From Patescibacteria group bacterium (GTDB lineage Bacteria > Patescibacteriota > Minisyncoccia > Phycocordibacterales > UBA9973), in contig JBBTYN010000002.1 of the NCBI GenBank assembly GCA_038061755.1, positions 79,312 through 143,311 of the forward strand: a DNA stretch of 64,000 nucleotides, written 5' to 3'. Shown one piece after another: positions 2,884 through 50,076 of this stretch (position 1 is the first letter of the stretch; each line of letters begins with the position of its first letter). Below the pieces are notes generated by a model. It was not told the origin of the DNA. It saw only the letters and a list, made by a program, of their open reading frames with translations, and did not search any database. The position numbers were made by a program, and so were the translations under genes.

Positions 2884-2926
2884 GCGCCTTGCCCCCACAC
2901 CTTTTAAAAAAAGGTGTGGGGGTTGC
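2884..2926. repeat. GC-rich palindrome (CCCCCACACCTTTT / AAAAGGTGTGGGGG stem) downstream of rny; a member of a 3-copy family and probably a terminator hairpin
   Basis: The sequence gccttgCCCCCACACCTTTTaaaaaaaGGTGTGGGGGttgccc is a perfect 13-14 bp stem flanked by the direct pentamer TTGCC. Related copies lie at 21001-21055 and 49521-49575. Confidence 0.6.
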
Positions 2927-3034
2927 CCTTAAAAAACCCTTGATATATAATAGATGGGTAGTAAATATAAAGGTCAAATGGCCCTCCATAGGCGGGCAAG
3001 GTCGAAATATTACAAATATTATCTTTAAATAAAT

Positions 3035-3307
3035 ATGAATAAACAAGCATTAGCCGAATTAGTACATGGAAAGCTCGGTGGTACAAAGGTACAAGCTGAA
3101 GAAATCGTTGACTCTTTATTTGAGGCTATCATCTCAACTTTGAAAAAAGGTGGTGAGGTTTCAATCGCTGGATTCGGAATCTTTTCTGTAAAACAAAGAG
3201 CTGCAAGAATGGCTCGCAATCCAAAGACTGGAGAGCAAGTCAAAGTAGCAGCTAAGAGAGTTCCAAAATTCCGACCTGCAAAAGGTTTGAAAGATACGAT
3301 TGCATAA
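3035..3307 (+). CDS. hup: HU-family DNA-binding protein
   Basis: 90 aa with MNKQ...ELV...GFGIFSVKQRAARMARNPKTGEQVKVAAKRVPKFRPAKGLKD, the HU/IHF signature arm. Confidence 0.9.
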   Translation: MNKQALAELVHGKLGGTKVQAEEIVDSLFEAIISTLKKGGEVSIAGFGIFSVKQRAARMARNPKTGEQVKVAAKRVPKFRPAKGLKDTIA

Positions 3308-3377: not shown

Positions 3378-3956
3378 TTAGTATTTTCTAATCACCGCCT
3401 TCAAAACTGCATTAATATTTAAACTGTGTTTTGGATATATTGATTTATAATTTTTATTCGCAGGTTCGAGCCAGACCTTAGTACCAGCTTTTTTAAAATA
3501 TTTCATTGTGAATTCTCCATCCACTTCAGCTATAACAATCTGCCCGTCTTTGGCTTGATTTGTTTTTTCTACTAGCACCATATCCCCTTTTTCTATGTGC
3601 GCATCAATCATAGAATCCCCGTCAACTTCTAACATATACGTCAAAGGTTTATTTTTAATAAGAAGGTCATCTAAATTTACAGTGTCAGTTAATTCTTCTT
3701 CCACAGTTGCAGGAAATCCAGCAGTGACAAAGCCGAGCATCGGCACACTGGTAATATTTTCTGTAAAAGTTTCAAATGGAATTAATCTGCCAATATGGTC
3801 TTTTGAAACTACACCCGCGTTAATCAACTTCTCCACCACTCGAAACACTGCATTCTTGGATTTAAAACCGAATAACTTCATCATTTCTGAATACGAAGGC
3901 ATTCTTTTATTCTCTTTAAAAAAAAATTCTATCTTTTCCTGATACAAATTACGCAT
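3378..3956 (-). CDS. lexA: LexA repressor (S24 peptidase)
   Basis: N-terminal wHTH, a C-terminal domain with VDGDSM (the Ser nucleophile) and a downstream KYFKK (Lys). The size, 192 aa, is typical. Confidence 0.85.
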   Translation of the reverse strand: MRNLYQEKIEFFFKENKRMPSYSEMMKLFGFKSKNAVFRVVEKLINAGVVSKDHIGRLIPFETFTENITSVPMLGFVTAGFPATVEEELTDTVNLDDLLIKNKPLTYMLEVDGDSMIDAHIEKGDMVLVEKTNQAKDGQIVIAEVDGEFTMKYFKKAGTKVWLEPANKNYKSIYPKHSLNINAVLKAVIRKY

Positions 3957-4155
3957 AGATGTTGGTTCTAAAAAATAGAATAACCAATTTATTCATCAAG
4001 CTTACCCTAGAATTATAACGAACTTTCTTCAAAAGTAATTTATGATCCCTCGCTTCTCTCTTATAGTCTTGTCCTTGGAGAATTTTAAAATCAATTTTTT
4101 TATTAATCTTCTGAATTTCTCTCTCTAACATTTTTAAATATTGTGTTTGACTCAT
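3949..4155 (-). CDS. Small hypothetical protein encoded immediately upstream of lexA, likely co-transcribed
   Basis: Read from the internal Met (MSQTQYLKMLEREIQKINKK..., 68 aa); the stop overlaps the lexA start by 8 nt. The SOS box lies upstream. No recognisable family. Confidence 0.4.
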   Translation of the reverse strand: MSQTQYLKMLEREIQKINKKIDFKILQGQDYKREARDHKLLLKKVRYNSRVSLMNKLVILFFRTNIYA

Positions 4156-4242: not shown

Positions 4243-4267
4243 TTGTCAATAAGTCCCTTGTGGATAA

Positions 4268-6653: not shown

Positions 6654-7150
6654 TTATATCAGTTTAGCTAATAATTCCTCCGCCCTTCTTATAATCCGTT
6701 CTCCAATTTCTCCCCAATCAAAATATTGCTTGTAGTCCTTTGGATCTATCAACTTAATTTCTGTAACATGCTCTGCTGGATCTGAACTAAATTCTCCATA
6801 TGGCCTTGCTGTGCAAACATAACGAAGCTGATATACAAAACTATTATCTCTGGTATCAATAACTTTTTGATATCCAACAGGCAAGAATGAAAGGACTTCC
6901 ATATTTGATTCTTCTTGTATTTCTCTTTTTAAAGTTTCTTCGAAACTCTCTCCTTTTTCAATAGTTCCTCCGATAAGTCCCATGTTTTACTATGCCCATT
7001 AAGAACTATCACCATTTTCCCATTACAAAAACACACTGCATACGTTTGAGTGCATTTTGTTTTATCTAGATCATCGAAAGAATTCATATCAGAATATTCA
7101 AAAATATAATCCACCCCACTTTTTCCTTTGTATTTTTCTGTTATGTTCAT
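6654..7150 (-). pseudogene. Second NUDIX hydrolase gene interrupted by a -1 frameshift (two overlapping ORFs, 6929..7150 and 6654..6983)
   Basis: The upstream ORF ends ...VLNGHSKTWDL. The downstream ORF in another frame begins GLIGGTIEKGESFEETLKREIQEESN, which is the Nudix box. Restoring one G in the run 'tggg' near 6984 yields the continuous ...KTWGLIGGTIEKGES... Confidence 0.6.
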
Positions 7151-16926: not shown

Positions 16927-18510
16927 TTACCCTACTTTATGTTTCGTGTGTAATTTTTTTACCTCTTCTTCCTCCAATTCTTCTTTTTTATCTTTCCCGC
17001 GCAAGCCAAGAATCTTAAGTTCTGCATCACCAAGCATATTTAACGATTTAATCAATTCCGATAAATGTTCCACAGTGTTTTTCTCAGGAGCATCCAGCAC
17101 TTCTTCAAGTAAAGCATGCAAAATCCATCCCATTCGTGGTCCTGGAGCAATTTTGAGTTCCTTCATCATAAATTCTCCGTTAATTTTTAGCTGTCCGACA
17201 GAAATTGGATCTCTTAAGGACTCTTCTATCATTACAAAATACTTTCGTAAACGATATGGGGCTTCTGTCTTTTTCATTCCTACTCTGTCACATTCTCTAA
17301 CTTTCATAAGATCCCAGATAGGATGATTTTCTTTCTTGCCCGCCAAAGCTTTAGCGTCGGCGGGGCCAACTTTTGCAACAATTCTTCGCACTGCTGAAAG
17401 TGTAATTAATTCTGTATCAGAAAAAAACATATGATTGCGTACAAGCTTGGATACTAATTCAATTTCTTTTTTTGGAAATTTTAATCTCTCCATTATTTTT
17501 TTTACCATTCGCGTACTGATAACTTCGTGGCCATAGAAAGTATATTTCTTTTTGGCTGAACTCTCGGTCTCTCTTCTTGCTCGTGGCTTTCCAATATCGT
17601 GAAAAAGCGCTGCAAGCCTTATTTCTAAAGACCAATTCTTGTTTGAAGCATGCATGAGCGCGTGAAGTAAGTGATTCCACACATCATAAATATGTTCCCC
17701 CGATTGCTCACAACCTATTCCCTCTTCTAACTCTGGAATTATATTTTTTAACAAATTAAATTTGTGCAACATTGCAATTCCACTCGCAGAATTTTCTGAC
17801 ATAATTATTTTTACAAACTCATCACGAATTCTTTCTTTGGATATTTTTTTTATTAAATCTGAATTTTTTAAAATACTTTCTGTTGTTTCATACGACACAA
17901 AAAAATTAAGTTGGCAAGAAAAACGTACCACGCGCAACATACGCAATGCATCTTCCTGAAATCTATTATCAGGATTACCGACAGCTTTTAAGGTCTTGTT
18001 TTTGATGTCCTTTATACCATCAAACAAATCAATTAGATGTCCTTTAGAATTTAAAGCCAGAGCATTGACTGTAAAATCACGTCTTTTAAGGTCATCTTCT
18101 ATCTTATCACTAAATTTTACCTCATCAGGATGCCTAAAATCGCTATATTTTGCTTCAGTTCTATAAGGTGTAACCTCAACGATATAATTAGGTTCTAGGT
18201 TAAAGGTTCTAGGCTCTAGTGTTTCTTGTGAAACATCAATTTTAGATGTTCCTCGTGAAACAACCACACCCACTGTTCCAAAAGTATTCTCATAAACCGT
18301 CTTTTCAAAAAGATTAATAATTTGCTCTGGTTTGGCATTTGTCGTAATATCCCAATCTTTTGGCTCTTTATCCATTAAAAGATCACGCACGCATCCTCCG
18401 ACTAGGTATGCCTCAAAACCAGCTTTTTCAAGTGTGCTAGTTACATGTGAAACTTCTTTTGGTATCTTTGATATTAAGTTTTTAGTATCTTGTTTCACAA
18501 CTTTGTGCAC
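16927..18510 (-). CDS. cca: CCA-adding tRNA nucleotidyltransferase with HD domain
   Basis: Pol-beta NT motif GGCVRDLLMDKEPKDWDITT, an RNA-binding region, and the HD motif LAALFHDIGKP. Confidence 0.8.
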   Translation of the reverse strand: MHKVVKQDTKNLISKIPKEVSHVTSTLEKAGFEAYLVGGCVRDLLMDKEPKDWDITTNAKPEQIINLFEKTVYENTFGTVGVVVSRGTSKIDVSQETLEPRTFNLEPNYIVEVTPYRTEAKYSDFRHPDEVKFSDKIEDDLKRRDFTVNALALNSKGHLIDLFDGIKDIKNKTLKAVGNPDNRFQEDALRMLRVVRFSCQLNFFVSYETTESILKNSDLIKKISKERIRDEFVKIIMSENSASGIAMLHKFNLLKNIIPELEEGIGCEQSGEHIYDVWNHLLHALMHASNKNWSLEIRLAALFHDIGKPRARRETESSAKKKYTFYGHEVISTRMVKKIMERLKFPKKEIELVSKLVRNHMFFSDTELITLSAVRRIVAKVGPADAKALAGKKENHPIWDLMKVRECDRVGMKKTEAPYRLRKYFVMIEESLRDPISVGQLKINGEFMMKELKIAPGPRMGWILHALLEEVLDAPEKNTVEHLSELIKSLNMLGDAELKILGLRGKDKKEELEEEEVKKLHTKHKVG

Positions 18511-18577
18511 TCGGGGGGATTCGAACCCTCAATAATAGTTCCGAAGACTATTGTGATATCCATTTCACTACGAGTGC
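18506..18577 (-). tRNA. tRNA-Arg (anticodon TCG), CCA not encoded
   Basis: The reverse complement folds as a cloverleaf: acceptor GCACTCG/CGAGTGC, D-stem GTGA/TCAC, anticodon stem ATAGT/ACTAT with loop CTTCGGA, and T-loop TTCGAAT. There is one A-C mismatch in the T-stem. The 3' end overlaps the cca start by about 5 nt. Confidence 0.6.
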
Positions 18578-18716
18578 AGAATTAATTTAATAATATTATA
18601 TATTTTACACTATTTAAAAAATATTGGCAAATAACGCTTGTTTTGCAGACTTATTTTCCAATTGCATTAGTTATAATAAAATACTATAATAAATTTGTTA
18701 TTTTAAAAAAGTAAAA

Positions 18717-18827
18717 GCGGTCATATTTGGTGGTCTTTAGACATAAATGATTAATGGTCATATTTGGTGGTTTTTAGACATAGATAATTTGCGGTCATAT
18801 TTGGTGGTCTTTGTACATACATAAAAA
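18717..18827 (+). repeat. Three degenerate tandem repeats of about 37 bp, each a partial copy of the 5' half of the downstream tRNA-Gly
   Basis: The units are gcggtcatatttggtggtctttagacataaatgattaat, ggtcatatttggtggtttttagacatagataattt and gcggtcatatttggtggtctttgtacatacataaaaa. Each begins with the tRNA 5' end GCGGTCAT and resembles its D-arm. Confidence 0.6.
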
Positions 18828-18898
18828 GCGGTCATGGTTTAGTGGTAGAACACGTCCTTGCCAAGGATGAGACGAGAGTTCGATTCTCTCTGGCCGCA
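18828..18898 (+). tRNA. tRNA-Gly (anticodon GCC)
   Basis: Cloverleaf with acceptor GCGGTCA/TGGCCGC (one G-U pair), D-loop AGTGGTA, anticodon loop TTGCCAA and T-loop TTCGATT. Confidence 0.8.
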
Positions 18899-19138
18899 CA
18901 AAAAAATGATGTCCATTAATTTTTGCTTATTTAATAAGGATTTTATTGTAACTGTGGATAACTATGTTAGTACTGTTCATAAAGGACATTATTAAAAACT
19001 GTCTTTTAATATCATTTTTAATTAAAATAGCTTGTAAAATAAGAATATATCAATAAAAGACATTAAAATTTAATAATAAGTTTCACGTGAAACATAAATA
19101 GACCATGTGCCATGTGAAACTATAAATTATATAGATAA

Positions 19139-19546
19139 ATGCCTAAAGTATTCACATCAAAAACACAGAAAACAGGAGAAATTGGAGAAAATATAGCTGT
19201 TAAGTTTCTCGTGAAACATAATTTTCTGGTATTAAATAGAAATTACACCAAAAAATGGGGTGAAATAGATATCATAGCTGAAAAAAATAATAAATTATAC
19301 TTTATTGAAGTAAAATCAGTTGCACGTGAAACACTTGAAAATGTTTTACATGAAACATCTGACTACAGACCTGAAGATAATATGCATCCGTGGAAATTAA
19401 AACGTTTATCACGAACAATTCAAACTTATCTTTTATCTAAAAAAATACCAGATGAAAAAGAATGGCAAATAGATTTATTAGTTGTGTTCCTTGATATGAA
19501 AAATAAAAAAGCAAAAATAAAAGTGGTCAATGATATTATTTTATGA
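19139..19546 (+). CDS. YraN-family (UPF0102) predicted endonuclease
   Basis: GEIGENIAVKFLVKHNFLVLNRNYTKKWGEIDIIAEKNNKLYFIEVKS matches the UPF0102 / restriction-endonuclease-like core. Confidence 0.7.
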   Translation: MPKVFTSKTQKTGEIGENIAVKFLVKHNFLVLNRNYTKKWGEIDIIAEKNNKLYFIEVKSVARETLENVLHETSDYRPEDNMHPWKLKRLSRTIQTYLLSKKIPDEKEWQIDLLVVFLDMKNKKAKIKVVNDIIL

Positions 19547-19603
19547 TATATTAAATTGACGTTTTGGTAAAAGCGGGCTTACCCGCCAAAGCCTTTGCAA
19601 AAC

Positions 19604-19674
19604 GGGCTGTAGTATACCGGTAGTACAAGTGCTTTGGGAGCATTTAGACTGGGTTCAATTCCCAGCAGCCCGAC
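19604..19674 (+). tRNA. tRNA-Pro (anticodon TGG)
   Basis: Acceptor CGGGCTG/CAGCCCG, anticodon stem AGTGC/GCATT with loop TTTGGGA, and T-arm CTGGGTTCAATTCCCAG. Confidence 0.8.
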
Positions 19675-19678
19675 ATTG

Positions 19679-19748
19679 CGGGATTAGTTTAGTGGTAGAA
19701 TAAGAGTTTTCCAAACTCTGGGCAGGCGTTCGATTCGCCTATCCCGCA
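19679..19748 (+). tRNA. tRNA-Gly (anticodon TCC)
   Basis: Acceptor GCGGGAT/ATCCCGC, anticodon stem AGAGT/ACTCT with loop TTTCCAA, and T-arm AGGCGTTCGATTCGCCT. Confidence 0.8.
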
Positions 19749-19770
19749 CATAATTTAAATAATTAAAGTT

Positions 19771-20757
19771 TTAGTTTACCCAAGATCCGTTTATTCCCGG
19801 ATTAAACGCGCCTTCAACTACGAAGTGAACATGCGGACCGGTGGAGCGTCCCGTAGAACCCACAAGACCAATGATGTCGTCTCGAGTGTCATCTTGAATA
19901 ACTAGGTCACCAGCACGAACAAAAATCTCAGACATATGACCATACATAGTTTTAACACCACCCGAGTGAACGATAATAACCAAACCACCAAAACCGCCAT
20001 TGTAGCCCATTCTGGCAAAAATAACTATTCCGGAAGCGGCGGCGTGTATCGGAGTGCCTTTTTTAATAGCAAAGTCCACCGCACATCCATCATGAAATTT
20101 TTGACTTAGGCGATAACCAGGAACAGGATTGACAAAATCAAATTTACGGAGACTGTAACAATATTCTGTGTTTTTGGTAGTCGTAGTGCTTTTAATAACC
20201 AGCTTAGCATTTTCTTCAACTCTCTTTCCACCAGAAATCGTAAACTCGTCACCTACTGCAAGTATAGTGTCCAATGTAATGTCATTACAAAAAATAATGT
20301 CACTTACGTTCACATTATAAAGTTTTGCTATCTTATGCAGTGTTTGTCCTTTAGTAACAGTGTGTTTAACGCCAGGAACAGAAGAAATAAAGAGTACATC
20401 ATTTTCTAAAAGATTCTTCTTCCCTTTATTTGCCACTAGAACACTGTCTTCAGAAACATCAAGCATTTTAGCTACCTTAGAAATAGAGACTCCTTTTTCA
20501 ACTACATAAACAATTGTCTCTCCACAAAAAGAATCTACGTCATCCCTTCCATTATTTTGGGGAAAAAACGCCTTTTCGTCAGGAGAGATATTATTTGTAT
20601 TCGCACTTGTATCATCAATATTATTTTTATCTTGCGAAGTAGGGGAAAAATTGGCCTGAAGGGCAAAAGCTCGATCGCCGAATATTGAAGAAAAGGAGTC
20701 TGCCCTAGCTACTTGTGTAGACACAAAAAAAGTCCCAAATAGCAAGGAAAAAATCAA
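19771..20757 (-). CDS. Secreted LysM-domain M23-family peptidoglycan endopeptidase
   Basis: Signal peptide, two LysM repeats (HTVTKGQTLHKIAKLYNV...), and an M23 domain with HxxxD...GSTGRSTGPHVHF. Confidence 0.85.
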   Translation of the reverse strand: MIFSLLFGTFFVSTQVARADSFSSIFGDRAFALQANFSPTSQDKNNIDDTSANTNNISPDEKAFFPQNNGRDDVDSFCGETIVYVVEKGVSISKVAKMLDVSEDSVLVANKGKKNLLENDVLFISSVPGVKHTVTKGQTLHKIAKLYNVNVSDIIFCNDITLDTILAVGDEFTISGGKRVEENAKLVIKSTTTTKNTEYCYSLRKFDFVNPVPGYRLSQKFHDGCAVDFAIKKGTPIHAAASGIVIFARMGYNGGFGGLVIIVHSGGVKTMYGHMSEIFVRAGDLVIQDDTRDDIIGLVGSTGRSTGPHVHFVVEGAFNPGINGSWVN

Positions 20758-21000
20758 AAAAGATCTTAATATTTTGAGTTTACGTTTTATAAAACAAACT
20801 AAATACCGCGAGATTTCCTTTTCTACCCAAAAAGACTAATAAATATAAGGGTAGAATCACAGCACGACCGAGTACTGCAAACAAAAGATTCTCACGATGA
20901 TTACTATCTTCTCTAGAATCCAGTCAACTTGTACTGTACCTCTCTTCAGAACAATATTTCTAGAATAGCTCAAAATAGATCAAAAGTCAATCTAATAAGA

Positions 21001-21055
21001 AACTGGTGTGGATAACCCCCACACCTTTCATTATAAAACAAAAGGTGTGGGGGAT
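21001..21055. repeat. GC-rich palindromic element (copy 2 of the CCCCCACACCTTT family) containing a perfect DnaA-box 9-mer
   Basis: The sequence tgtGGATAACccccacacctttcattataaaacaaaaggtgtggggGATAACt has a 13-bp stem and the direct repeat GATAAC on both flanks (TSD-like). TGTGGATAA is a perfect DnaA box. Confidence 0.6.
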
Positions 21056-21112
21056 AACTATTTCGACCTAAATTTGGTATAAAAAATTAAAAACTATATA
21101 ATACAGATACTT

Positions 21113-23281: not shown

Positions 23282-25465
23282 GTGGATACAAACGAACAGC
23301 ATCTAAAGGGTCTAAATAGTGAACAAAAAAGGGCGGCGCTTCATATGAAGGGACCACTTTTAATTATTGCCGGAGCAGGCGCTGGAAAAACAAAAACAAT
23401 TACGCATCGAATTGTAAATCTGATAAAACAGGGAGTGTCTCCTGATAAAATTTTGGCAGTAACATTCACCAATAAAGCTGCCAAAGAAATGCGAGAGAGA
23501 ATTATCGGTGCAATATCATTATATGATAGTAAAAATGCAGGACAAAAAATAAACAGAGAAGTGGATTTGCTTTCGCGGGGTGTCTCGCAGGCTGACGAGC
23601 CGAGAGGCAGCGCTCCATCAGCAGATGGAGACAGCGACCCCGTGAAAGTAGAATCCATTTCTCTGTCCGAAATACCTTTTGTGTCTACTTTTCACTCTCT
23701 TGGAGTTTATATAATAAAAGAAAATGCCAAACTATTAGGATTAACACGATATTTTACTATTTTAGACGAAGGAGATGCGACAACTCTTATTAAAAATATT
23801 TTAAAAGAGCTCAGCATAGATCCTAAACAATATGATCCAAAAAAAATAAAAAATATCATCTCGCGAGAAAAAGGAAAATTTATGCATTTGGCAGACTATG
23901 CAGAGAGGGAAGAAGGTGGCGCAAGTGCTATAGGGAAAATAGTAGCGCAAGTTTGGAATTTATATGAAAAACAAAAAATGAAAGAAAATTCGCTGGATTT
24001 TGATGATTTACTTTTAAAAGCAACAAAATTACTAAAAGAAAATGAGAAAATCAGAAAAATTTATCAAAACAAATGGGAATATATACACGTGGATGAATAT
24101 CAAGACACAAATGAAGTACAATATCTAATGTCAAAATTACTAACGAGTGCTGAAAGAAATATTTGCGTGGTTGGGGACGCTGACCAGAATATTTATTCTT
24201 GGCGTGGAGCCAATTTAAAAAACATTTTAAGTTTTGAAAAAGATTATCCAAATGCAAAAATAATCTTATTGGAACAAAATTACCGGTCTACAAAAAATAT
24301 TTTGGAGGCGGCAAATGAGGTAATTAAAAAGAATAAATATAGACCAGATAAAAATTTATTTACAAAAAATATAGAAGGTGAAAAAATAGGACTATATGAA
24401 TCCCTAGACGAAACTGACGAAGCTGAATTCGTCGCTACAAAAATTCTAGAAATCACGGACAATTTCGGAAAGGATGTTGTTTTGAAAAGCATTGCGCAGG
24501 CTGACGAGCCGAGCATAGCAAATTTTCAGCAGAAAATTATGTGCGGTTTTCAAAATAATATCCTTTCGGAAATTGCTATCCTTTACCGCGCGAATTTCCA
24601 ATCTCGCGCGCTTGAAGAAGCGATGCTCAGATACAATATCCCTTATCAAGTTTTAGGTATTAAATTTTTTGAAAGAAAAGAAATCAAAGACACTCTCGCA
24701 TATTTACGCGCAGCATTAAATCCTGATAGTTTGTCTGATATAAAAAGAATAATAAATTTCCCTGCCCGAGGTATCGGAAAAGTGACTTTGCTGAAAATTT
24801 TTGCTAATCAAAAAGAAACTTTACCAATAAAAATGCAAATAAAAATTAATAATTTTTATAAAACCTTAGAAGAAATAAAAGAAAAAATTACGAACACAAA
24901 AGTTTCGGAAGTAATAAAATTTGTAATAAAAAAATCTGGAATTGAAACAGAACTTTCTTCTGGCACCGAAGAAGACATAGAAAGATTAGAAAACATCAAA
25001 GAACTTGCCACCCTAGCGCTCAAATATGACAATCTAGAAAATGGAACAGGAGTAGAAAAACTTTTAGAAGACGCCTCTCTTGTCTCAGATCAAGATTCTT
25101 TAATGATAAATGTCTCGACCAAAGTCGGGACCCCGACAGGGGTCGGGGGGGTAAAATTAATGACTGTACATGCATCAAAAGGACTTGAGTTTGAATATGT
25201 TTTTATTACAGGATTAGAAGATGGACTTTTTCCACACCAAAGGCAAAATGAAAGCAAAACAAATGAAGATAGTGAGGAAGAACGAAGGCTTTTCTATGTA
25301 GCGCTTACTCGCGCTCGGAGAAAATTATTTTTATCCTTTGCAAATTTCCGCACCATTTTTGGCTCTCGTAACATAAATACACCATCAGAATTTATCAGCG
25401 ATATTCCTGCAGATTTATTAAAAAAAGAAGGTGAAATTAGCGGAATAAAGACAATTTACCTATAA
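23282..25465 (+). CDS. uvrD: ATP-dependent DNA helicase UvrD/PcrA (carrying three GC-rich in-frame insertions)
   Basis: Motifs GAGAGKTKTITHRI, TFTNKAAKEMRER, TFHS, VDEYQDTN, GDADQNIYSWRGA, QNYRST, LYRANFQSR, GIKFFERKEIKD and VHASKGLEF. Confidence 0.9.
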   Translation: MDTNEQHLKGLNSEQKRAALHMKGPLLIIAGAGAGKTKTITHRIVNLIKQGVSPDKILAVTFTNKAAKEMRERIIGAISLYDSKNAGQKINREVDLLSRGVSQADEPRGSAPSADGDSDPVKVESISLSEIPFVSTFHSLGVYIIKENAKLLGLTRYFTILDEGDATTLIKNILKELSIDPKQYDPKKIKNIISREKGKFMHLADYAEREEGGASAIGKIVAQVWNLYEKQKMKENSLDFDDLLLKATKLLKENEKIRKIYQNKWEYIHVDEYQDTNEVQYLMSKLLTSAERNICVVGDADQNIYSWRGANLKNILSFEKDYPNAKIILLEQNYRSTKNILEAANEVIKKNKYRPDKNLFTKNIEGEKIGLYESLDETDEAEFVATKILEITDNFGKDVVLKSIAQADEPSIANFQQKIMCGFQNNILSEIAILYRANFQSRALEEAMLRYNIPYQVLGIKFFERKEIKDTLAYLRAALNPDSLSDIKRIINFPARGIGKVTLLKIFANQKETLPIKMQIKINNFYKTLEEIKEKITNTKVSEVIKFVIKKSGIETELSSGTEEDIERLENIKELATLALKYDNLENGTGVEKLLEDASLVSDQDSLMINVSTKVGTPTGVGGVKLMTVHASKGLEFEYVFITGLEDGLFPHQRQNESKTNEDSEEERRLFYVALTRARRKLFLSFANFRTIFGSRNINTPSEFISDIPADLLKKEGEISGIKTIYL
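23574..23644. repeat. GC-rich palindromic insertion inside the uvrD CDS, sharing the 19-bp core CGCAGGCTGACGAGCCGAG with the 92-bp element
   Basis: cgcggggtgtctcGCAGGCTGACGAGCCGAGaggcagcgctccatcagcagatggagacagcgaccccgtg has terminal inverted repeats CGCGGGGTGTCTC / GAGACAGCGACCCCGTG. It encodes an extra ...SRGVSQADEPRGSAPSADGDSDPV... segment before the TFHS motif. Confidence 0.55.
24473..24564. repeat. 92-bp MITE-like palindromic element inserted in frame in uvrD (copy A); identical to copy B in ksgA
   Basis: gatgttgttttgaaaagcattgcgcaggctgacgagccgagcatagcaaattttcagcagaaaattatgtgcggttttcaaaataatatcct has TIRs AGGATGTTGTTTTGAAAAGC... / ...GGTTTTCAAAATAATATCCT and is flanked by the direct repeat TTCGGAAA. 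It encodes VVLKSIAQADEPSIANFQQKIMCGFQNNIL. Confidence 0.7.
25112..25150. repeat. GC-rich palindromic patch inside uvrD (ACCCCGAC...GTCGGGG)
   Basis: gtctcgaccaaagtcgggaccccgacaggggtcggggggg encodes STKVGTPTGVGG just before the conserved LMTVHASKGLEF motif. GC content is far above the local background. Confidence 0.4.
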
Positions 25466-25474
25466 TTAAGAAAA

Positions 25475-27016
25475 ATGAATATTTTTAACAAGCAAACATT
25501 ATATATATTAAGTTCATTCCTTGCTGGTTTTTCTGTAATGACCATAGAACTTATTTCAGGAAGAATAGTAGCTCCAATAATAGGGTCTTCGGTTTTTACT
25601 TGGACATCTGTAATAGGAATAACTTTATTAGGACTCTCCATCGGTAGTTATGTTGGTGGCCAAATTGCAGATAAAACTGAAGGAAATAAATCACTTCCTC
25701 TAGTGTTCCTTTTATCATCAATCTTAGTTTCATTAATTCCAGTATTGGCAGCAAATACAAATTTTATTACAGATTCTTCCGATTCAATCTTGAAATTAAA
25801 TTTATATCTATCAATTTATTTATTCTTACTTCCAACATTGGCAATAGGACTTATTCAACCAATAATTCTTAAAAAATTTGCTAATGATTTTTCAAAAATT
25901 GGCAGTGAATATGGCATATTATCGTTTGCCTGGTCATCTGGTGGCATATTCGGTGTATTTTTAACAGGATTTTTTTTCATATCAAATATTGGAAGCATGG
26001 AAACAATTTGGTTAATGTCTCTAATTCTATTCTTAGTAGGAGGAATTTTGGCAATAAAAGATAAAAAAATAATTTTACTTTTCATAATAACAATGCTTGT
26101 TGTGCCAAATTTTCTTTATTTTACACAACAAAAAATACTAAATCCAAAAATAATATTTCAAAAAGAAACTGATTACTATAATGCTAGAGTTATTGATGCA
26201 TATCTTCCCGGATATGGAGATTCCCGAATACTCAATTTAGATTTTGATTTTCATAGTATAGAAACCAAAAAAGTGGTTGAGTATTACCCAGAGATATATC
26301 CAATTTTTGCTAATTTAAAAACAAATATAAAAAATATTTTAGTAATAGGTGCTGGGGCATATACTCTACCAAAACATTTTAAAAATTATTATAAAGATGC
26401 AGATGTTTCTGTCGTTGAGCTAGATCCAGAAATAATTAATATAGGTAACGATTTTTTTGATCTTAAAAAATATAATATAAAAACAATAGTTGGAGACGCA
26501 AAAATTGTAATAAATAAAAATAAAGAAAAATATGATGTAATTTTTGGTGATGCTTATAATTCTTTTATATCTGTGCCTTGGTATCTCTTAACAGAAGAAT
26601 GGAACAACGAGATTAAAGAAAAATTAAATGAAAATGGAATTTATGCTATAAATTTTATAGGCTCGTTGTCTGGATCAAAATCAGAATTCACAAATAGTGT
26701 ATTGAGCACATTTAAAATAAGTTTCCCCAATTTTTATATTTTTGCATTTGGAAAAAATCCTGAATATACACAAAGCATAACATTGGTAGGTGTTAATGGA
26801 AGACTCCCAATAAGCGAAGGAGAGCTTTCCAAAAAATTATTGATAGGAGAAAATAGTTTTTTAGCAAATAAAATTATTCCTGTTATGTATTTTAAAGATT
26901 CAACTTCAATAATTTTAACAGATAATTTTTCACCAGTAGAAAAATTGATGGAATCAACAATAAAAAGTTATTTCCCAAAAAATTTATTCGAGTTTAAGAG
27001 TATTTTGTCAATATGA
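25475..27016 (+). CDS. Polytopic membrane protein fused to a spermidine-synthase-like (aminopropyltransferase-fold) domain
   Basis: About 7 N-terminal TM helices, then ILVIGAGAYTLPKHF...VSVVELDPEII...YDVIFGDAY (SAM-dependent spermidine-synthase-like motifs). Confidence 0.7.
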   Translation: MNIFNKQTLYILSSFLAGFSVMTIELISGRIVAPIIGSSVFTWTSVIGITLLGLSIGSYVGGQIADKTEGNKSLPLVFLLSSILVSLIPVLAANTNFITDSSDSILKLNLYLSIYLFLLPTLAIGLIQPIILKKFANDFSKIGSEYGILSFAWSSGGIFGVFLTGFFFISNIGSMETIWLMSLILFLVGGILAIKDKKIILLFIITMLVVPNFLYFTQQKILNPKIIFQKETDYYNARVIDAYLPGYGDSRILNLDFDFHSIETKKVVEYYPEIYPIFANLKTNIKNILVIGAGAYTLPKHFKNYYKDADVSVVELDPEIINIGNDFFDLKKYNIKTIVGDAKIVINKNKEKYDVIFGDAYNSFISVPWYLLTEEWNNEIKEKLNENGIYAINFIGSLSGSKSEFTNSVLSTFKISFPNFYIFAFGKNPEYTQSITLVGVNGRLPISEGELSKKLLIGENSFLANKIIPVMYFKDSTSIILTDNFSPVEKLMESTIKSYFPKNLFEFKSILSI

Positions 27017-27897
27017 AGGCAAAAAAATCTCTCGGACAAAATTTCTTAAAGTCAGAAATAGCTCTTCGTAAAATTATTGAAGCGGGAGAAATAAAATCTA
27101 CTGATGTAATTTTAGAAATAGGGCCAGGCAAGGGAGCGTTAACCTCTAAGCTTCTAGAAAAATCTGGAATAGTTATCGCTGTTGAAAAAGATCGTGAACT
27201 TTTTGAATTTTTAAAAATAAAATTTGCAGAAGCAATTACAGAAAAAAAATTAATTTTAATAAATGATGATATTCTAAAATTTATAGAGGATGTTGTTTTG
27301 AAAAGCATTGCGCAGGCTGACGAGCCGAGCATAGCAAATTTTCAGCAGAAAATTATGTGCGGTTTTCAAAATAATATCCTCAATAAATTTAACTACAAAA
27401 TCATTGCCAATATTCCTTACAACATTACCGGCGCAATTTTAAAAAAGTTTTTAACAGCAGAAAATCAACCCGAAAGTATGATATTAATGGTTCAGCATGA
27501 AGTAGCCAAAAGAATCATAGGAAGGGGAAGCAACCCTTCGACTCCGCTCAGGGTAAAGGAAAGTATTCTCTCTATTTCAGTCAAGGCTTACGGGGAGGCA
27601 AAGATGATAATGAAGGTTGATAAAAGATATTTCTCACCAAGTCCTAAAGTTGATTCGGCTATTATCGCCATAAAAAATATTTCTAGGAAGAATTTTGAAG
27701 GTGTCAAACACCCGATGTTTGACAATTTTGAAGAGAAATTCTGGGAAATAGTAAAAACTGGCTTTGCACATAAGAGAAAAAAGCTTTCTTCAAACTTAAA
27801 AGTTTTAAAATTAGAAAAAACCGACCTCCTAGAAAAGTTGGGAAACAAAAGAGCGGAAGATTTAACTCTTTCGGACTGGCTTGCATTAACTAAATAG
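27013..27897 (+). CDS. ksgA: 16S rRNA (adenine1518/1519-N6)-dimethyltransferase KsgA/RsmA (carrying an in-frame 92-bp element)
   Basis: LGQNFL, EIGPGKGALT, NIPYNITGAIL and F.P.PKVDSAII motifs. There is an extra 30-aa block between DILKFIE and NKFNYKIIANIPYN. Confidence 0.85.
   Translation: MKAKKSLGQNFLKSEIALRKIIEAGEIKSTDVILEIGPGKGALTSKLLEKSGIVIAVEKDRELFEFLKIKFAEAITEKKLILINDDILKFIEDVVLKSIAQADEPSIANFQQKIMCGFQNNILNKFNYKIIANIPYNITGAILKKFLTAENQPESMILMVQHEVAKRIIGRGSNPSTPLRVKESILSISVKAYGEAKMIMKVDKRYFSPSPKVDSAIIAIKNISRKNFEGVKHPMFDNFEEKFWEIVKTGFAHKRKKLSSNLKVLKLEKTDLLEKLGNKRAEDLTLSDWLALTK
27289..27380. repeat. 92-bp MITE-like palindromic element inserted in frame in ksgA (copy B)
   Basis: Identical over 92 bp to 24473-24564. 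The terminal inverted repeats extend to GAGGAT...ATCCTC. The reverse-frame ORFs 24280..24516 and 26994..27332 both start MLGSSACAMLFKTT because of this repeat. Confidence 0.7.
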
Positions 27898-39365: not shown

Positions 39366-40712
39366 ATGTCAAAAAGAAACTTTATACTTTTAATAATAAT
39401 CATAGTTATCGCATTAATTGCAATTTTTGGATATTTTTATTTTAACCAAGGAACAAATACACCAGGAGGAGATGACACAGGTACAAACTTTATTTCACAA
39501 TTTTATCCATTTAGAAATAACAACAATGCAACAAAACCTACCACCACAACGCCTCCCATTGATGTCTCAGACTACCAGCCACCAATGGATGTAGTAACTG
39601 TAAAATTAAAAAAAGTTTCAAGCATGCCTATTGCAGGCTTTACTGTATTTTCTAAAGAAAGGTTAAAAGATGTGCCCATAGTAACACCGGTCTTAGAAAC
39701 CGATGCCACTACCGAAAATCCTGCTCCTAAGATAACCAAGCCGACTCCACCACTAACCGAATTTATGCCAGCCTTGAGGTATGTGGAAAGAACTACGGGA
39801 AATATTTACCAGACTTTTGCAGATAAAATAGAAGAAAGAAAATTTTCCACGACTATTATTCCTATGGTTTATGAAGCATTTTTTGGAAACAAGGGAAATT
39901 CTGTAGTTATGAGATATTTAAAGGGAGATGCTAAAACTATTATAACTTTTGTTGGGACTCTACCAAAAGAATTTCTTGGCGCAGACACCACTGACAATAA
40001 TGAAATAAAAGGAACGTTCCTTCCAGAAGACACAGAAGATGTAAGCCTATCAAGCGATAATCTTACTCTATTTTATCTTTTCAACTCTGGAGACAATATA
40101 ATTGGCACAACTTTAAATTTAGTAAATAATAAAAAAGTTCAAGTTTTTGATTCACCATTTACTGAGTGGTTATCATTATTCCCAAATAATAAAATGATTA
40201 CTTTTACCACCAAACCTTCGTTTCTAATACCTGGATATATGTATGCGCTAAATCCTACTAATAAAAATTACAATTTCCATGAAATCTTAGGCAATATAAA
40301 CGGGCTTACCACTCTCACCAGCTCTGATGGAAAATTAGTTCTTTATAGTAATGATAATTTATCACTCAACATTTATCACATAAATACAAAAGTTTCTGAT
40401 GCCCTAGTTGTAAAAACATTAGCAGAAAAATGTGTTTGGAATAAAAATAGTGATGCTATTTATTGCGGAGTACCAAAATCTATATCTGGCACTCAATATC
40501 CAGATAGTTGGTATCAAGGAGAAGTTTCTTTTTCAGACCAAATTTGGAAAATAGATATTAAAACTAAAAATGCAACAATGATTGCAGATCCAGCCACTAT
40601 GGTTGGCGGGGAAGATATCGATAGCATAAAACTTGCGCTAGATGATGGAGAAAACTATTTATTTTTTGTAAATAAAAAAGATTCTTTCCTTTGGGAACTT
40701 GAGCTTAAATAA
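39366..40712 (+). CDS. Hypothetical membrane-anchored secreted protein (448 aa)
   Basis: N-terminal TM LLIIIIVIALIAIFGYFYF followed by a T/P-rich linker. It is the last gene of the cluster. Confidence 0.5.
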   Translation: MSKRNFILLIIIIVIALIAIFGYFYFNQGTNTPGGDDTGTNFISQFYPFRNNNNATKPTTTTPPIDVSDYQPPMDVVTVKLKKVSSMPIAGFTVFSKERLKDVPIVTPVLETDATTENPAPKITKPTPPLTEFMPALRYVERTTGNIYQTFADKIEERKFSTTIIPMVYEAFFGNKGNSVVMRYLKGDAKTIITFVGTLPKEFLGADTTDNNEIKGTFLPEDTEDVSLSSDNLTLFYLFNSGDNIIGTTLNLVNNKKVQVFDSPFTEWLSLFPNNKMITFTTKPSFLIPGYMYALNPTNKNYNFHEILGNINGLTTLTSSDGKLVLYSNDNLSLNIYHINTKVSDALVVKTLAEKCVWNKNSDAIYCGVPKSISGTQYPDSWYQGEVSFSDQIWKIDIKTKNATMIADPATMVGGEDIDSIKLALDDGENYLFFVNKKDSFLWELELK

Positions 40713-41199
40713 CTCCCACGTATTTAATAACAACTCGACGATCACGCCCGATGCCTACAGATTCAGTCTTTAGGTCACTTGATTCAGACAAAAATTCATG
40801 AATAATTCTTCGCTCAAAAGAGGACATTGGATCAACTTCTATATTAGACTTAAAATACCTAGCTCTTTCTGACATCATATGAGCTACTGCGCGAATATTT
40901 TCAACATGTTTTTTTTGAAAACCATTTATATCAATAATAATTGCTGTCCCAAAGCAAGGCTTAGGGGATTCCCCTAAGCCTTGCTTTGGGGTTGTTTTTG
41001 ATTCTATAATCCTATGAGCAAGGTAGTTTAATGCGTGCAAGCCATCACCATCGTGTCCAATAAAAAAATGCGGCTCACTAACTTCCACAGAAACCCATAT
41101 ATTTTTAGGTTCATCATCAATAATTGAAATTTTATTTAATTTTACTGTAGTTTTTTCAATTAATTCTTTTATTAAATTTTGAATTTCTTCTTTTTCCAT
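40705..41199 (-). CDS. jag: Jag/KhpB (KH + R3H domain RNA-binding protein), with an in-frame palindromic insertion in the linker
   Basis: Jag_N-like start, KH segment (FFIGHDGDGLHALNYLAHRI) and an R3H C-terminus (SSFERRIIHEFL...GIGRDRRVVI). Confidence 0.8.
   Translation of the reverse strand: MEKEEIQNLIKELIEKTTVKLNKISIIDDEPKNIWVSVEVSEPHFFIGHDGDGLHALNYLAHRIIESKTTPKQGLGESPKPCFGTAIIIDINGFQKKHVENIRAVAHMMSERARYFKSNIEVDPMSSFERRIIHEFLSESSDLKTESVGIGRDRRVVIKYVGVI
40948..40990. repeat. Perfect 20-bp-stem, 3-nt-loop GC-rich hairpin inside the jag CDS
   Basis: CCCAAAGCAAGGCTTAGGGG-att-CCCCTAAGCCTTGCTTTGGG encodes ...TPKQGLGESPKPCFGT... on the minus strand, in frame. Confidence 0.65.
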
Positions 41200-42464: not shown

Positions 42465-42469
42465 GATAG

Positions 42470-42604
42470 CTATACAGACAATTTTTTTCTGCCTTTTTGA
42501 CGCCTTCTTTTTAGAACTTCCTTTCCAGTTTTTATTCTAGATCTAACTAAAAATCCATGGGCTCTTGCTCTTTTTCTCTTTTTGGGTTGATATGTAACTG
42601 ACAT
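42470..42604 (-). CDS. rpmH: 50S ribosomal protein L34
   Basis: Hand translation gives [44 protein letters not shown] (44 aa). It is below the ORF-track size cutoff. Confidence 0.85.
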
Positions 42605-42724
42605 AATTAGAGTTTACAATATTATTAAGAATAAATCAAATTTAATTTTTATCCACAGCTTATCAACAGAGTTAATAAGCTTTTTAAAGTATCTTCTAAT
42701 TTATAAATAGTATAATATGAGATC
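42605..42724. promoter_or_regulatory. dnaA upstream region with DnaA boxes (part of oriC / dnaA promoter)
   Basis: A perfect TTATCCACA at 42650-42658 is immediately followed by the variant TTATCAACA. The region lies between rpmH and dnaA, the canonical oriC location. Confidence 0.5.
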
Positions 42725-44068
42725 ATGGATATAAATACAAAACAGTTGTGGAAAAATTGTTTGCTAAAAATTGAATCTGGTATGTCTAAGGCAAATTTTA
42801 GCACATGGTTTAGAAACACGTCTATTGCAAAAGAAGAAAATGGGGTTATTTATATAGGGGTGCCAAATGAATTTGTCCGTGATTGGCTTATAAATAAATA
42901 TCATAAACTTATAACTAAAACCATAGCAGAAAATTATGAAAATATGCGCGCTGTAGAATATATAATTATAAAAATAGAAAACCCTAAACAAGAAATAATA
43001 ATAAACGAAACCATAGAAAAAGAGCTACCCTTAAGAGATTTATACATAAACCCGGAAAACAATTTGAACCCACGTTACCATTTTAATTCTTTTATTGTTG
43101 GAACTTTTAATGAACTCGCATACGCAGCATCACAGGCAATAATAGAATCACCAGGAACAAAATATAATCCATTTTTTATTTATGGAGGTACCGGTCTTGG
43201 AAAGACTCATCTAATTCAAGCTGTAGGAAATTCAATAAAAGATAAGTATCCTGATAAAAAAGTGCATTATATGACTTTAGAAAAGTTCGCAACAGATTTT
43301 ATAAACTCTCTTCAAGGGAATAAAGCAAATTCTTTTAAAGAAAAATATCGCAAATATGATCTTTTAATTATAGATGATATTCAATTTATTGGTAAAATGG
43401 AAAAAATTCAAGAAGAACTTTTTCATACATTTAATACTTTTTATGAAAATAATAAACAAATTATTTTTTCTTCCGACAAACACCCTAATTATATTCCAGA
43501 ATTAGCAGATCGTTTAAAATCCCGCTTTGCCGCAGGAATGATTGTGGATGTTACTGAACCAGAATATGAATCTCGTCTCGCAATTATAAAAGTAAGGCTT
43601 CGTGAACTTAATATTGTTTTAGAAGAGGATTTAATTGAATATGTTGCAACATCTATACAAGGAAATATTCGTGAACTTGAAGGAAGTTTAAATCTTATTA
43701 TTTGCCAATATCGCCTTAAAAACAAAGCCCCAACACTCACAGAAGTTAAAAACCTACTAAAAAACAGTATGAAACCAAAAAAGAATATGGCAATAAAAGA
43801 TGTTGTAAAAATTGTGGCCGAATATTATAAATTAGAAGAAATGTCTATTTATGAAAAAACTAGAAAAAAAGAAATAGTTAAAACTAGACAAATTATAATG
43901 TATCTGCTTCGTGAAGATTTTAGTGTCTCTTATCCATTAATAGGACAAAAATTAGGTGGAAAAGACCATACAACAGTGATGCATTCATGTGTAAAAATTA
44001 AAGAAGATTTAAAAAATGACCCACAATTAATACAGGAATTAGAACAAATAAGAATTATGTTTAAATAA
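42725..44068 (+). CDS. dnaA: Chromosomal replication initiator DnaA
   Basis: N-terminal LWKNCL..., AAA+ motifs NPFFIYGGTGLGKTHL and LLIIDDIQF, and a C-terminal DNA-binding domain (KTRKKEIVKTRQIIMYL...LIGQKLGGKDHTTVMHS). Confidence 0.95.
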   Translation: MDINTKQLWKNCLLKIESGMSKANFSTWFRNTSIAKEENGVIYIGVPNEFVRDWLINKYHKLITKTIAENYENMRAVEYIIIKIENPKQEIIINETIEKELPLRDLYINPENNLNPRYHFNSFIVGTFNELAYAASQAIIESPGTKYNPFFIYGGTGLGKTHLIQAVGNSIKDKYPDKKVHYMTLEKFATDFINSLQGNKANSFKEKYRKYDLLIIDDIQFIGKMEKIQEELFHTFNTFYENNKQIIFSSDKHPNYIPELADRLKSRFAAGMIVDVTEPEYESRLAIIKVRLRELNIVLEEDLIEYVATSIQGNIRELEGSLNLIICQYRLKNKAPTLTEVKNLLKNSMKPKKNMAIKDVVKIVAEYYKLEEMSIYEKTRKKEIVKTRQIIMYLLREDFSVSYPLIGQKLGGKDHTTVMHSCVKIKEDLKNDPQLIQELEQIRIMFK

Positions 44069-49287: not shown

Positions 49288-49320
49288 AAACACACAGGGT
49301 TCCCTTGTGTGTTTTTATTT
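49288..49320 (+). terminator. Rho-independent terminator after tyrS
   Basis: aaacacacagggttcccttgtgtgtttttatttt. Confidence 0.6.
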
Positions 49321-49520
49321 TAGCTGTCCCTGTCTGGGTCTTCTTCGTCTAAATTAAAGTCATTTATCTCATCTAGCATATCTAACGGTTCATCTTCATC
49401 AACTCCCATTTTAAAACTATCTTTTGTTTCTTCATCTTCATCGTACATAAAAATTTATTTTTTTATTAAATAAACTACTAATGCCTACTTTGTATCAAAA
49501 TATAAAAAACTTGGCAATAG

Positions 49521-49575
49521 CAAGTGTGGATAACCCCCACACCTTTCGACAATACAAAGAAAGGTGTGGGAAATA
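49521..49575. repeat. GC-rich palindromic element (copy 3 of the CCCCCACACCTTT family) with a perfect DnaA-box 9-mer
   Basis: gtgtggataacccccacacctttcgacaatacaaagaaaggtgtgggaaataag shares a 23-bp 5' arm with copy 2. Confidence 0.6.
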
Positions 49576-49578
49576 AGT

Positions 49579-50076
49579 CTAAAATCTCATATGCGCAAAG
49601 GCTGTCAGGGCTATAGCGATAGCGTCTAATTCATCATCGGATTTTTTAGAATTATCTATATCCACTAAAATTTTCACCATTTTTATAATTTGTTCTTTGT
49701 TAGCTTTTCCATAGCCAGTGGTGGCTATTTTAATTTGAGGAGGAGAAGCTTCAAATATCTTCAGTTCTGCGCATGAGGCTTCATAGATCACTACTCCGCG
49801 CACTTCAGCCACATTCATTACTGTTTTGTGATTAGTATTTAAAAATAAAGTTTCAATAGCTAAAATTTCTGGCTTATATTTTTTTATTATTTTTTTAACC
49901 TTTTCACCAATTAATTTTAATCTTTCACTAAATTCTAATTTAGTAGAAGTTTTAAAACATTCAGAAAAAATTACTTTTTCCTTCCTCGACACACCATAGC
50001 CTTTAGTGAAGGCGGTTCTCTCCAATATTGCAATTCCTAACCGCTCATATCCCGGATCTATTCCTAAAATTCGCAT
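49579..50076 (-). CDS. ruvC: Holliday junction resolvase RuvC
   Basis: MRILGIDPGYERLGIAIL...ILAIETLFLNTNHKTVMNVAEVRGVV...DELDAIAIAL. Confidence 0.9.
   Translation of the reverse strand: MRILGIDPGYERLGIAILERTAFTKGYGVSRKEKVIFSECFKTSTKLEFSERLKLIGEKVKKIIKKYKPEILAIETLFLNTNHKTVMNVAEVRGVVIYEASCAELKIFEASPPQIKIATTGYGKANKEQIIKMVKILVDIDNSKKSDDELDAIAIALTAFAHMRF

Follow-up and report, generated by a model that had tools for sequence, protein, structure and literature searches.

The window analysed here, a stretch of 64,000 nucleotides from a Patescibacteria group bacterium (contig JBBTYN010000002.1, positions 79,312 to 143,311), carries three GC-rich hairpins, at 2892-2922, 21016-21053 and 49534-49572 (copies 1, 2 and 3), each formed by the paired arms CCCCCACACCTTT/AAAGGTGTGGGGG. 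The hairpins are probably miniature copies, devoid of any open reading frame (ORF), of a transposable element of very small size, which is found widely in Patescibacteria and encodes a nuclease of the GIY-YIG type; they can be described as internally deleted copies, similar to miniature inverted-repeat transposable elements (MITEs). As read from the sequences, the short forms keep only the two ends of the element, hence the GC-rich hairpin. The hairpins and their inverted arms were found where an earlier note on this DNA had placed a three-copy palindrome family.

The window contains the 11-mer CCCACACCTTT in six places, all within inverted pairs (three pairs), against 0.5 occurrences expected from shuffled sequences, and no further arms, single or degenerate, are present in the window besides the three pairs. 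The exact 13-nt arms are located at 2892-2904/2910-2922 in copy 1 and at 21016-21028/21041-21053 in copy 2. Copy 3 combines an exact left arm (49534-49546) with a right arm (49560-49572) that shows two mismatches, the tip GG being replaced by AA; the arm lengths that are still perfect are 13 and 11 nt. RNA folding of the copies gives -33, -28 and -22 kcal/mol, with z-scores from -4.4 to -6.6.

The full-length element and its nuclease

Loci from other genomes and metagenomes were fetched for comparison (designated by L-numbers). A search for separated arms in these loci gave elements of 313-356 bp, whose sole ORF encodes a protein of 84 amino acids (aa). Full-length elements are present in L192, L148, L198, L054, L077, L110 (frameshifted), L203 and L213, and in at least 13 distinct loci in all. 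The protein (MYYVYILKS..LYIGSTNDLKRRLSEHN..RRPFE(I/L)RYYEA..DAR.RE..LKKDGKALGQLKRRISESL) corresponds to the GIY-YIG catalytic domain (Pfam PF01541, E=2e-19, in the full-length copies of the relatives), and its closest solved structures are the UPF0213 proteins 1ZG2 and 1YWL, followed by I-TevI and Slx1. The close homologues form 561 clusters at 90% identity, nearly all of exactly 84 aa, those with names being listed as "GIY-YIG nuclease family protein" of Patescibacteria. At an E-value limit of 0.001 the protein matches 5,743 clusters of a 50%-identity library, and at 1e-10 it matches 634. Strong purifying selection acts on the ORF, with a ratio of nonsynonymous to synonymous substitution rates (dN/dS) of 0.03-0.10 at dS values from 0.4 to >1.6 (saturation).

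The layout of the element is constant: the left end CCCCCACACCTTT(C/T)GTTTTAT, which belongs to a perfect terminal repeat of ~20 nt, is followed by a short promoter-like stretch, ~25 nt ending with TATAAT beside the ATG, then by the ORF and the right end, and the stop codon of the ORF lies inside the right terminal repeat (...TAAAACAAAAGGTGTGGGGG). The two ends co-vary over 20 positions, with 97.5% of the cells paired and compensatory changes in 6 of the 20 pairs, a level reached by none of 500 shuffles. The stop codon is coupled to the opposite end (TAA with TTTTAT, TGA with TTTCAT), and the outer 12 bp of the ends show no variation.

The association of the nuclease with these ends was also seen in an unbiased sample, for which seven nuclease proteins were chosen by protein similarity alone and their DNA was fetched afterwards. 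All seven loci are bounded by CCCCCACACC...GGTGTGGGGG, with a 4-bp direct repeat that is perfect in five of them and keeps three of the four bases in the other two. No other candidate enzyme was found between such ends in 1.5 Mb of loci, and no recognised transposase class is encoded in the full-length parent, the GIY-YIG nuclease being its sole ORF. Phage records contain only remote GIY-YIG genes, of at most 43% identity, and a phage origin was dropped on these grounds. In three proteins (P0099, P0119 and P0120) the called nuclease ORF runs into the left inverted repeat, giving a spurious N-terminus MNPHTF..., which is a translation of AACCCCCACACCTTT; this annotation artefact marks the elements.

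Target-site duplication

Direct repeats of at least 5 nt surround 45 of 89 copies, against ~10 expected when the left and right flanks are re-paired at random. In the register analysis of 160 non-redundant copies, a perfect 4-nt repeat abuts the 13-nt arms in 47%, versus 7% for shuffled left/right pairings. Six different 4-mers are observed: TAAA/TTTA (29 copies), TATA (14), TTAT/ATAA (5), AAAA (4), CTTG (2) and CGTG (1). The target consensus is R-TWWA-C(C), often G-TTAT-CCACA. Of 15 full-length elements, 9 have a perfect 4-bp repeat and 4 more match at three of the four bases.

The earlier note had described TTGCC at copy 1 and GATAAC at copy 2 as signs of insertion with target duplication. 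Flanking direct repeats are indeed present (TTGCC, GGATAAC), and insertion with target duplication agrees with the dispersed family, the recurrent flanking repeats and the empty sites described below, but the duplication is 4 bp long and is neither TTGCC nor GATAAC. The longer repeats are apparent ones, because the C-run and the G-run at the tips of the element rebuild the target bases of G-NNNN-C(C). Duplications of 5-8 bp were rejected by the register analysis, the extra G and C matches being independent of one another (~0.5 each, 0.29 jointly). The comparison of the flanks supports a dispersed repeat family inserted with a 4-bp target-site duplication.

Occupied and empty sites in relatives

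The presence or absence of the element at a given site varies between related genomes. At the site of copy 1, between rny and the HU gene, L069 (76% identical) is empty and shows a single GCTTGCC, L187 (84%) has the same short hairpin, and L110 (88%) carries a 130-bp relative between CTTG repeats, with perfect 21-nt ends CCGCACACCTATTTTGGTATT. The reverse case is found at 4259-4267 of the window (minus strand, AGTTATCCACAAGG), where the single target, (G)TTATCCACA, is unoccupied; the same site is filled in L110 (frameshifted copy) and L198 (intact copy) by a GIY-YIG element of 312-313 bp between TTAT repeats. The ends and the ORF are present or absent jointly at this site, and no bare hairpin is found there in the window. 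What differs between the genomes is the segment from one inverted repeat to the other.

The site of copy 2 holds short forms in L057 and L058 and the long GIY-YIG form in L077, as well as a full element in L224 (a locus found via the protein alone), which is situated between the genes for the M23 peptidase and its downstream neighbour; ATAA flanks this element on either side, and the duplication in L077 is also ATAA. Judged from L077 and L224, which keep the ORF at that site, copy 2 most likely formed in place by losing it. For copy 1 there are two possibilities, the separate insertion of a short form and a replacement at a hot spot. At the site of copy 3, L169 (~68% identical flanks) has a hairpin with 13-bp arms and AAAA(C) on both sides, instead of ATAA(C). 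In L077, L054, L148 and L158 a short hairpin with its own (T)CATA repeat is nested inside the long element; it is absent from L110 and L198.

Size and distribution of the family

A scan of one genome per species (596 Gb) with the pattern CCCACACCTTT-N1-30-AAAGGTGTGGG gave 85 loci, versus ~1 expected by chance according to our own calculation; among the matches listed (80), ~65 are labelled Patescibacteria (the candidate phyla radiation, CPR). The metagenome scan with the hairpin pattern gave at least 117 loci, and viral contigs gave no match to it. The same hairpin is present in >200 fetched loci overall, nearly all from Patescibacteria, and the classes that carry it include Nomura-, Campbell-, Kaiser-, Uhr-, Doudna-, Moranii- and Saccharibacteria, as well as Paceibacterota. 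The earlier note had left room for a family of only three copies with flanks not reproduced elsewhere; the census shows hundreds of copies, with recurrent flanking direct repeats.

The copies are mostly intergenic, 22% of them being located inside ORFs of at least 100 aa versus 79% of random positions. Divergent, co-directional and convergent gene pairs flank 26, 49 and 9 copies, respectively; the divergent context is as frequent as expected and the convergent one is the rarest. Three size classes are observed (30-50, ~130 and ~315 bp), with only the ends in common; in particular, the ~130-bp class shares just the terminal 11-14 nt with the coding element, as in MITEs. The idea of a DNA-uptake sequence was rejected, as there are no single arms in the window and the motif is common to CPR classes.

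Some individual loci show further peculiarities. In Campbellbacteria RIFOXYC2_FULL_35_25 (L005 5065-5095, L014 853-880, L030 1854-1885 and L034 5060-5085) the hairpins are followed by runs of the heptamers AGTATCA/AGTACCA, e.g. gtatcaagtatcaagtatc. At one orthologous locus (L062 1753, L134 1454, L045 630 and L082 2412) the 9-nt loop is exactly inverted between genomes, TCAGAATGA versus TCATTCTGA, with the same flanks. This could be an effect of hairpin template switching, of re-insertion or of assembly; template switching at hairpins can likewise invert loops, and the inversion was not used as evidence of transposition. In L200, two hairpins with reverse-complement loops (196-260 and 976-1040) bracket a RelE/RelB-like toxin-antitoxin pair.

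The copies in the window and their surroundings

The window has ~33% G+C and carries rny, HU, uvrD, rnpA-yidC-jag next to dnaA-dnaN, and ruvC; its closest relatives among the fetched loci are Patescibacteria of the Paceibacterota/Nomurabacteria type. No strand is assigned to the three hairpins or to their duplications. Copy 1 (2892-2922) is a minimal hairpin, CCCCCACACCTTTT-aaa-AAAAGGTGTGGGGG, with a perfect stem of 14 bp, and begins 13 nt past the rny stop codon (2876-2878). Its left duplication, as read from the sequence, is CTTG (2888-2891), and the partner (G)TTG at 2923-2925 keeps three of the four bases. The right flank TTGCCC (2923-2928, plus strand) is the retained target half and doubles as the -35 hexamer of the HU promoter, TTGCCC-17-TATAAT (2923-2951), the HU ORF being located at 3035-3307.

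In copy 2 (21016-21053) the left end CCCCCACACCTTTCATTAT is joined directly to the right end AAAACAAAAGGTGTGGGGG, as expected for the full-length element minus its ORF. It is flanked by ATAA at 21012-21015 and at 21054-21057. This copy lies between the 5' ends of two genes, a M23/LysM peptidase gene (19771-20757, minus strand) and an ORF of 711 aa (from 21113, plus strand), with promoter-like sites on either side (minus strand, TTGACT-17-TATTCT; plus strand, TTGGTA-17-TATAAT), and the statement that all copies sit at gene 3' ends is false for it. Copy 3 (49534-49572) has an exact left arm and the right arm AAAGGTGTGGGaa, with the terminal GG mutated; once the mutated tip is allowed for, ATAA is present on both flanks, at 49530-49533 and at 49573-49576, the latter 2 nt from the stop codon of ruvC (49579-50076, minus strand).

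The three copies, which form strong hairpins between genes as RNA or DNA, are probably inert relics, any terminator or insulator effect being probably secondary. Rfam at gathering thresholds finds only five tRNAs in the whole window; with relaxed limits (E up to 10 for the surroundings of copy 2, E up to 1 for a full-length element) it gives only chance matches to microRNAs and snoRNAs.

Putative DnaA boxes and the likely replication origin

Copies 2 and 3 have gtgtggataaCCCCCACACCTTT in common, which contains the perfect 9-mer TGTGGATAA at 21007-21015 and 49525-49533, as had been noticed before. The 9-mer had been considered a DnaA box embedded in the element. It is located outside, and consists of the duplication ATAA, which forms its last 4 nt at both copies, plus four or five bases of the adjoining target; at the unoccupied target (4259-4267) this 9-mer is also present, by itself. 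Within the family, 17 of 376 distinct element ends, from about eight different loci, have TTATCCACA (with up to one mismatch) exactly at the boundary, and the distribution of mismatches is bimodal. G-TTAT-CCACA is a recurrent target because the box is found at the boundary of these ends at about eight loci. It resembles the tip of the element itself, being equal to the duplication plus CCCCCACAC minus three C.

That the hairpins are DnaA-related elements, whose TGTGGATAA boxes would bind DnaA for origin function, titration or regulation, is very improbable in the light of the sequences. The perfect 9-mers are enriched (5 in the window versus 0.58 expected), and the minimum of the cumulative GC skew of the window falls at 21039, inside copy 2, where the gene orientation switches. 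Against this, the box is outside the element, at a small minority of the ends, and alone at an empty target. Each hairpin has a single box, and the sole cluster (three boxes within 100 bp, 42649-42755) is found upstream of dnaA. The skew minimum is partly produced by the C-rich arm followed by the G-rich one, and the gene-strand switch at 19-21 kb contributes as well.

The gene order rnpA-yidC-jag, dnaA-dnaN and the DnaA boxes at 42649, 42660 and 42747 (region 42465-42760) point to a likely replication origin at 42.5-42.7 kb. Copy 2, with its skew minimum, is a less likely origin than the rnpA-dnaA intergenic region. The skew minimum (21039) and the main switch of gene orientation (region 18500-21100) are 21 kb away from the likely origin, beside a cluster of tRNA genes.

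The proposed terminator role

The earlier note had proposed that the hairpins also act as terminators. As an explanation of the family, host-selected RNA hairpins (terminators or stabilisers of 3' ends) that share a stem by chance seem improbable to us, despite several features that agree with them: copies 1 and 3 begin 13 and 2 nt past stop codons, the stems are very stable, and diverged relatives still have copies 2 and 3 at the same sites. None of the copies is followed by a U-tract, the tails being UUGCCCUU, AUAACUAU and UUAUCCAC, whereas the evident bidirectional terminators of this genome (3341-3378, 49280-49322 and 60297-60358) do have A/T tracts. Divergent promoters flank copy 2, and the gene contexts of the family show no bias to 3' ends, divergent pairs outnumbering convergent ones. 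A terminator role would also leave unexplained the stem that is common to CPR classes, the variable 4-bp repeats, the empty sites and the nuclease ORF. The terminator scan did not call the main hairpins, and terminator-like sites were no commoner than in shuffled sequences. A terminator role is not supported by these data, nor does anything in them support a dedicated host role of the copies in the window.

An antiterminator was also considered, as GGTGTGG upstream of copy 2 can pair with the left arm (alternative hairpin 21005-21025); it was rejected, since GGTGTGG is the target next to the duplication and copy 2 is upstream of both promoters.

Two features of the neighbouring genes are worth recording. 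Between the conserved promoter-like TTGACT-17-TATTCT (20985-20957) and the M23/LysM peptidase gene there is a non-coding leader of ~200 nt (20760-20985, minus strand). Its nucleotide sequence is conserved in L057 and L077 and less strongly so in L058, with no Rfam match and weak covariation; the leader may act as a cis-regulatory RNA, hitherto undescribed, for this cell-wall hydrolase gene. Just downstream of copy 3, an ORF of 42 codons (49320-49448, minus strand) encodes the very acidic peptide MYDEDEETKDSFKMGVDEDEPLDMLDEINDFNLDEEDPDRDS, and similar acidic ORFs in the corresponding position of L169 and L005 make it probable that this is a real small gene.

Proposed mechanism of movement

The hairpins show the behaviour of MITEs and are in this respect of a known kind: they have terminal inverted repeats, a target-site duplication that is fixed in length and variable in sequence, empty sites that show one repeat, and a coding parent with the same ends. 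A parent encoding a recognised transposase, shown to move the element, was not found. It is the parent that is unusual, with its ~313 bp, a lone GIY-YIG domain and no recognised transposase. We infer that the 84-aa nuclease would itself be the transposase of the element, in which case the ~313-bp units would be the smallest autonomous DNA transposons known and a new mechanistic class; this proposal is a tentative one, to which we give a little less than an even chance.

According to this proposal, the nuclease would act in cis or in trans on the paired ends, possibly in the form of a hairpin or cruciform, would cut at the boundaries between repeat and target, and would open TWWA targets with a 4-nt stagger, while ligation and fill-in by the host would complete the insertion and create the duplication. 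The hairpin MITEs would be non-autonomous offspring of the nuclease element. Action on paired ends fits the covariation of the inner positions, as well as the existence of structure-specific relatives such as Slx1.

The main alternative, a rather unlikely one, is a parasitism of two layers, in which the hairpins are independent repeats moved by another enzyme, and the GIY-YIG gene is a homing-type coloniser of their loops, or a cargo. It would agree with the occurrence of distant GIY-YIG genes in other palindromes (in L233, 52% identity, with a different 12-bp repeat, and in L127, 37% identity, with a ~55-nt composite repeat), with the ~130-bp MITEs sharing so little beyond their termini with the nuclease element, and with the lack of a DNA-binding domain in the nuclease. 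It would, however, need two steps at window position 4259, where ends and ORF come and go together and no bare hairpin is seen, and it does not explain the coupling between the stop codon and the inner end (TAA-TTTTAT, TGA-TTTCAT). The exact ends at 7/7 unbiased nuclease loci, and the absence of any other enzyme between such ends in the 1.5 Mb of loci, also speak against it.

Returning to a transposable element moved by its own nuclease, several points weigh against this reading of the hairpins. Only about half of the copies have a perfect 4-bp repeat. The stems are constant across the family, with loops of 2 to 30 nt, but most of the hairpin loci were retrieved by a pattern requiring perfect 11-nt arms, which biases any statement on arm conservation; some of the matches are labelled as non-CPR, the binning of metagenome-assembled genomes being imperfect. 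Genomes whose flanks are 68-77% identical have copies 2 and 3 at the same sites, which could also mean that the host selects for the hairpin, and the direction of the indels cannot be polarised, as insertion and precise loss look alike. The 84 aa are almost wholly catalytic domain, with no evident DNA-binding module. There is no GIY-YIG gene in the window, so that the nuclease copy of the source genome itself is unseen, and each exact nuclease protein maps to one locus, so that no recent burst of identical copies is seen. Finally, we know of no GIY-YIG enzyme that performs strand transfer.

Copies in structural RNA genes

Several copies are located inside genes of structural RNAs. L021 carries a decayed GIY-YIG copy in 23S rRNA (3790-4080), where L132 also has a family member, and a hairpin in place of the 16S V1 helix (6809-6858). 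In L063 (620-646) and L017 (186-233) the hairpin forms the P3 stem of RNase P RNA. As far as can be judged from these sequences, the paired ends merely lengthen a helix in the structural RNAs, and this extension of a helix would be the reason why insertions in rRNA and RNase P RNA are tolerated.

Insertions that encode GIY-YIG proteins, and are neither group I nor group II introns, have been described in CPR rRNA genes and, in the passages retrieved from that paper, are judged not to spread by homing (PMC11270868, J Bacteriol 2024). They are probably the same elements in another setting. The retrieved text of PMC11270868 concerns rRNA genes only, a term search of it gives neither 'inverted repeat' nor 'hairpin', and miniature copies and intergenic spread are absent from the passages retrieved.

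More distant GIY-YIG genes are also bounded by palindromes. In L233 (190-500) a nuclease of 52% identity lies in the helix-25 region of 23S rRNA within a different inverted repeat of 12 bp (CCGAGCACTACT), which is partly the native helix-25 stem. In L127 (1560-1990) a GIY-YIG gene of ~100 aa and 37% identity lies inside a composite inverted repeat of ~55 nt, GTCATYCCGAGCGAAG...AGCGTGGGRATCCCGTG. The two loci are hints which suggest that palindrome-bounded cassettes may be general for small GIY-YIG genes of the UPF0213 type.

Relation to known elements

A literature search gave no account of the motif, nor of a transposon of GIY-YIG type that has inverted repeats and target duplication. The element resembles the bacterial MITEs and their parent insertion sequences (Correia/NEMIS, RUP, ERIC) in the perfect terminal repeats, the short target duplication, the intergenic and nested copies, the size classes that share their ends, and the coding parent. 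It differs from them in that the parent has no DDE, serine, tyrosine or HUH transposase, only the GIY-YIG nuclease of 84 aa, and in that the shortest copies are little more than two ends. The smallest insertion sequences known to us are of ~700 bp, and the ~313-bp parent is under half of that size.

The second group to be compared consists of repetitive extragenic palindromic (REP) elements and the REP-associated tyrosine transposases (RAYTs). REPs are also GC-rich hairpins of 30-40 nt between genes, and RAYT genes are likewise flanked by two inverted REP copies, as the nuclease gene is here bracketed by two inverted ends. That the hairpins are single-strand elements of the REP/RAYT or IS200/IS605 type, moved by a HUH tyrosine transposase, is nevertheless hardly credible: the associated gene has another enzyme fold (GIY-YIG and not HUH/Y1), there is no conserved GTAG-like tetranucleotide at the 5' side, and the stem is found across the superphylum rather than in a single species. 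Moreover, target duplications are present, and to our knowledge REP and IS200/IS605 elements make none.

With the free-standing and the intron-borne homing endonucleases of GIY-YIG type (I-TevI and the Seg proteins of T4) the nuclease has in common a selfish context and the catalytic domain, including its GIY and YIG motifs as well as the conserved Arg and Glu. It has no DNA-binding domain, and its element, with inverted repeats and a 4-bp duplication, occupies many unrelated sites, in contrast to homing into one cognate allele without duplication. The mobile GC clusters of yeast mitochondrial DNA and the Rickettsia palindromic elements are further GC-rich palindromes of AT-rich genomes, with short AT-rich flanking repeats, and are tolerated in RNA and protein genes. 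We know of no sequence relationship with them, and of no dedicated enzyme tied as clearly to their palindrome ends.

Other repeats of the window are separate from the hairpin family. Two identical repeats of ~90 nt (24470-24560 and 27286-27376, core GCGCAGGC) are located in the UvrD-like ORF and in the ORF at 27013-27897, and the repeat is also present at 92% identity in a Nomurabacteria genome (L078 548-608). They are probably the in-frame elements of the earlier note and belong to a different family; the suggested kinship of these GCGCAGGC-type elements with the hairpins does not hold, as no sequence is common to the two. A perfect palindrome with 21-nt arms, CCCAAAGCAAGGCTTAGGGGA/TCCCCTAAGCCTTGCTTTGGG (40948-40990), lies in a jag/KhpB-like ORF (40705-41199, minus strand), between the KH and R3H domains, and has no sequence similarity to the hairpin family.

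Significance

Patescibacteria have small genomes and are for the most part uncultured, and their mobile DNA is little known. The family described here is present in many CPR classes, both in intergenic DNA and in rRNA and RNase P RNA genes, and the element would explain the GIY-YIG "insertion sequences" of CPR rRNA genes that, in the passages retrieved, were judged to be non-homing (PMC11270868). Its signature, CCCCCACACCTTT...AAAGGTGTGGGGG between TWWA repeats, can be used in annotation and avoids miscalling the copies as terminators, DnaA sites or small ORFs ("NPHTF..."). If it is true that the nuclease moves the element, a class of transposases would be added whose fold is so far known from homing endonucleases, repair nucleases and retroelement endonucleases, in a system of 0.3 kb that would be easily reconstituted.

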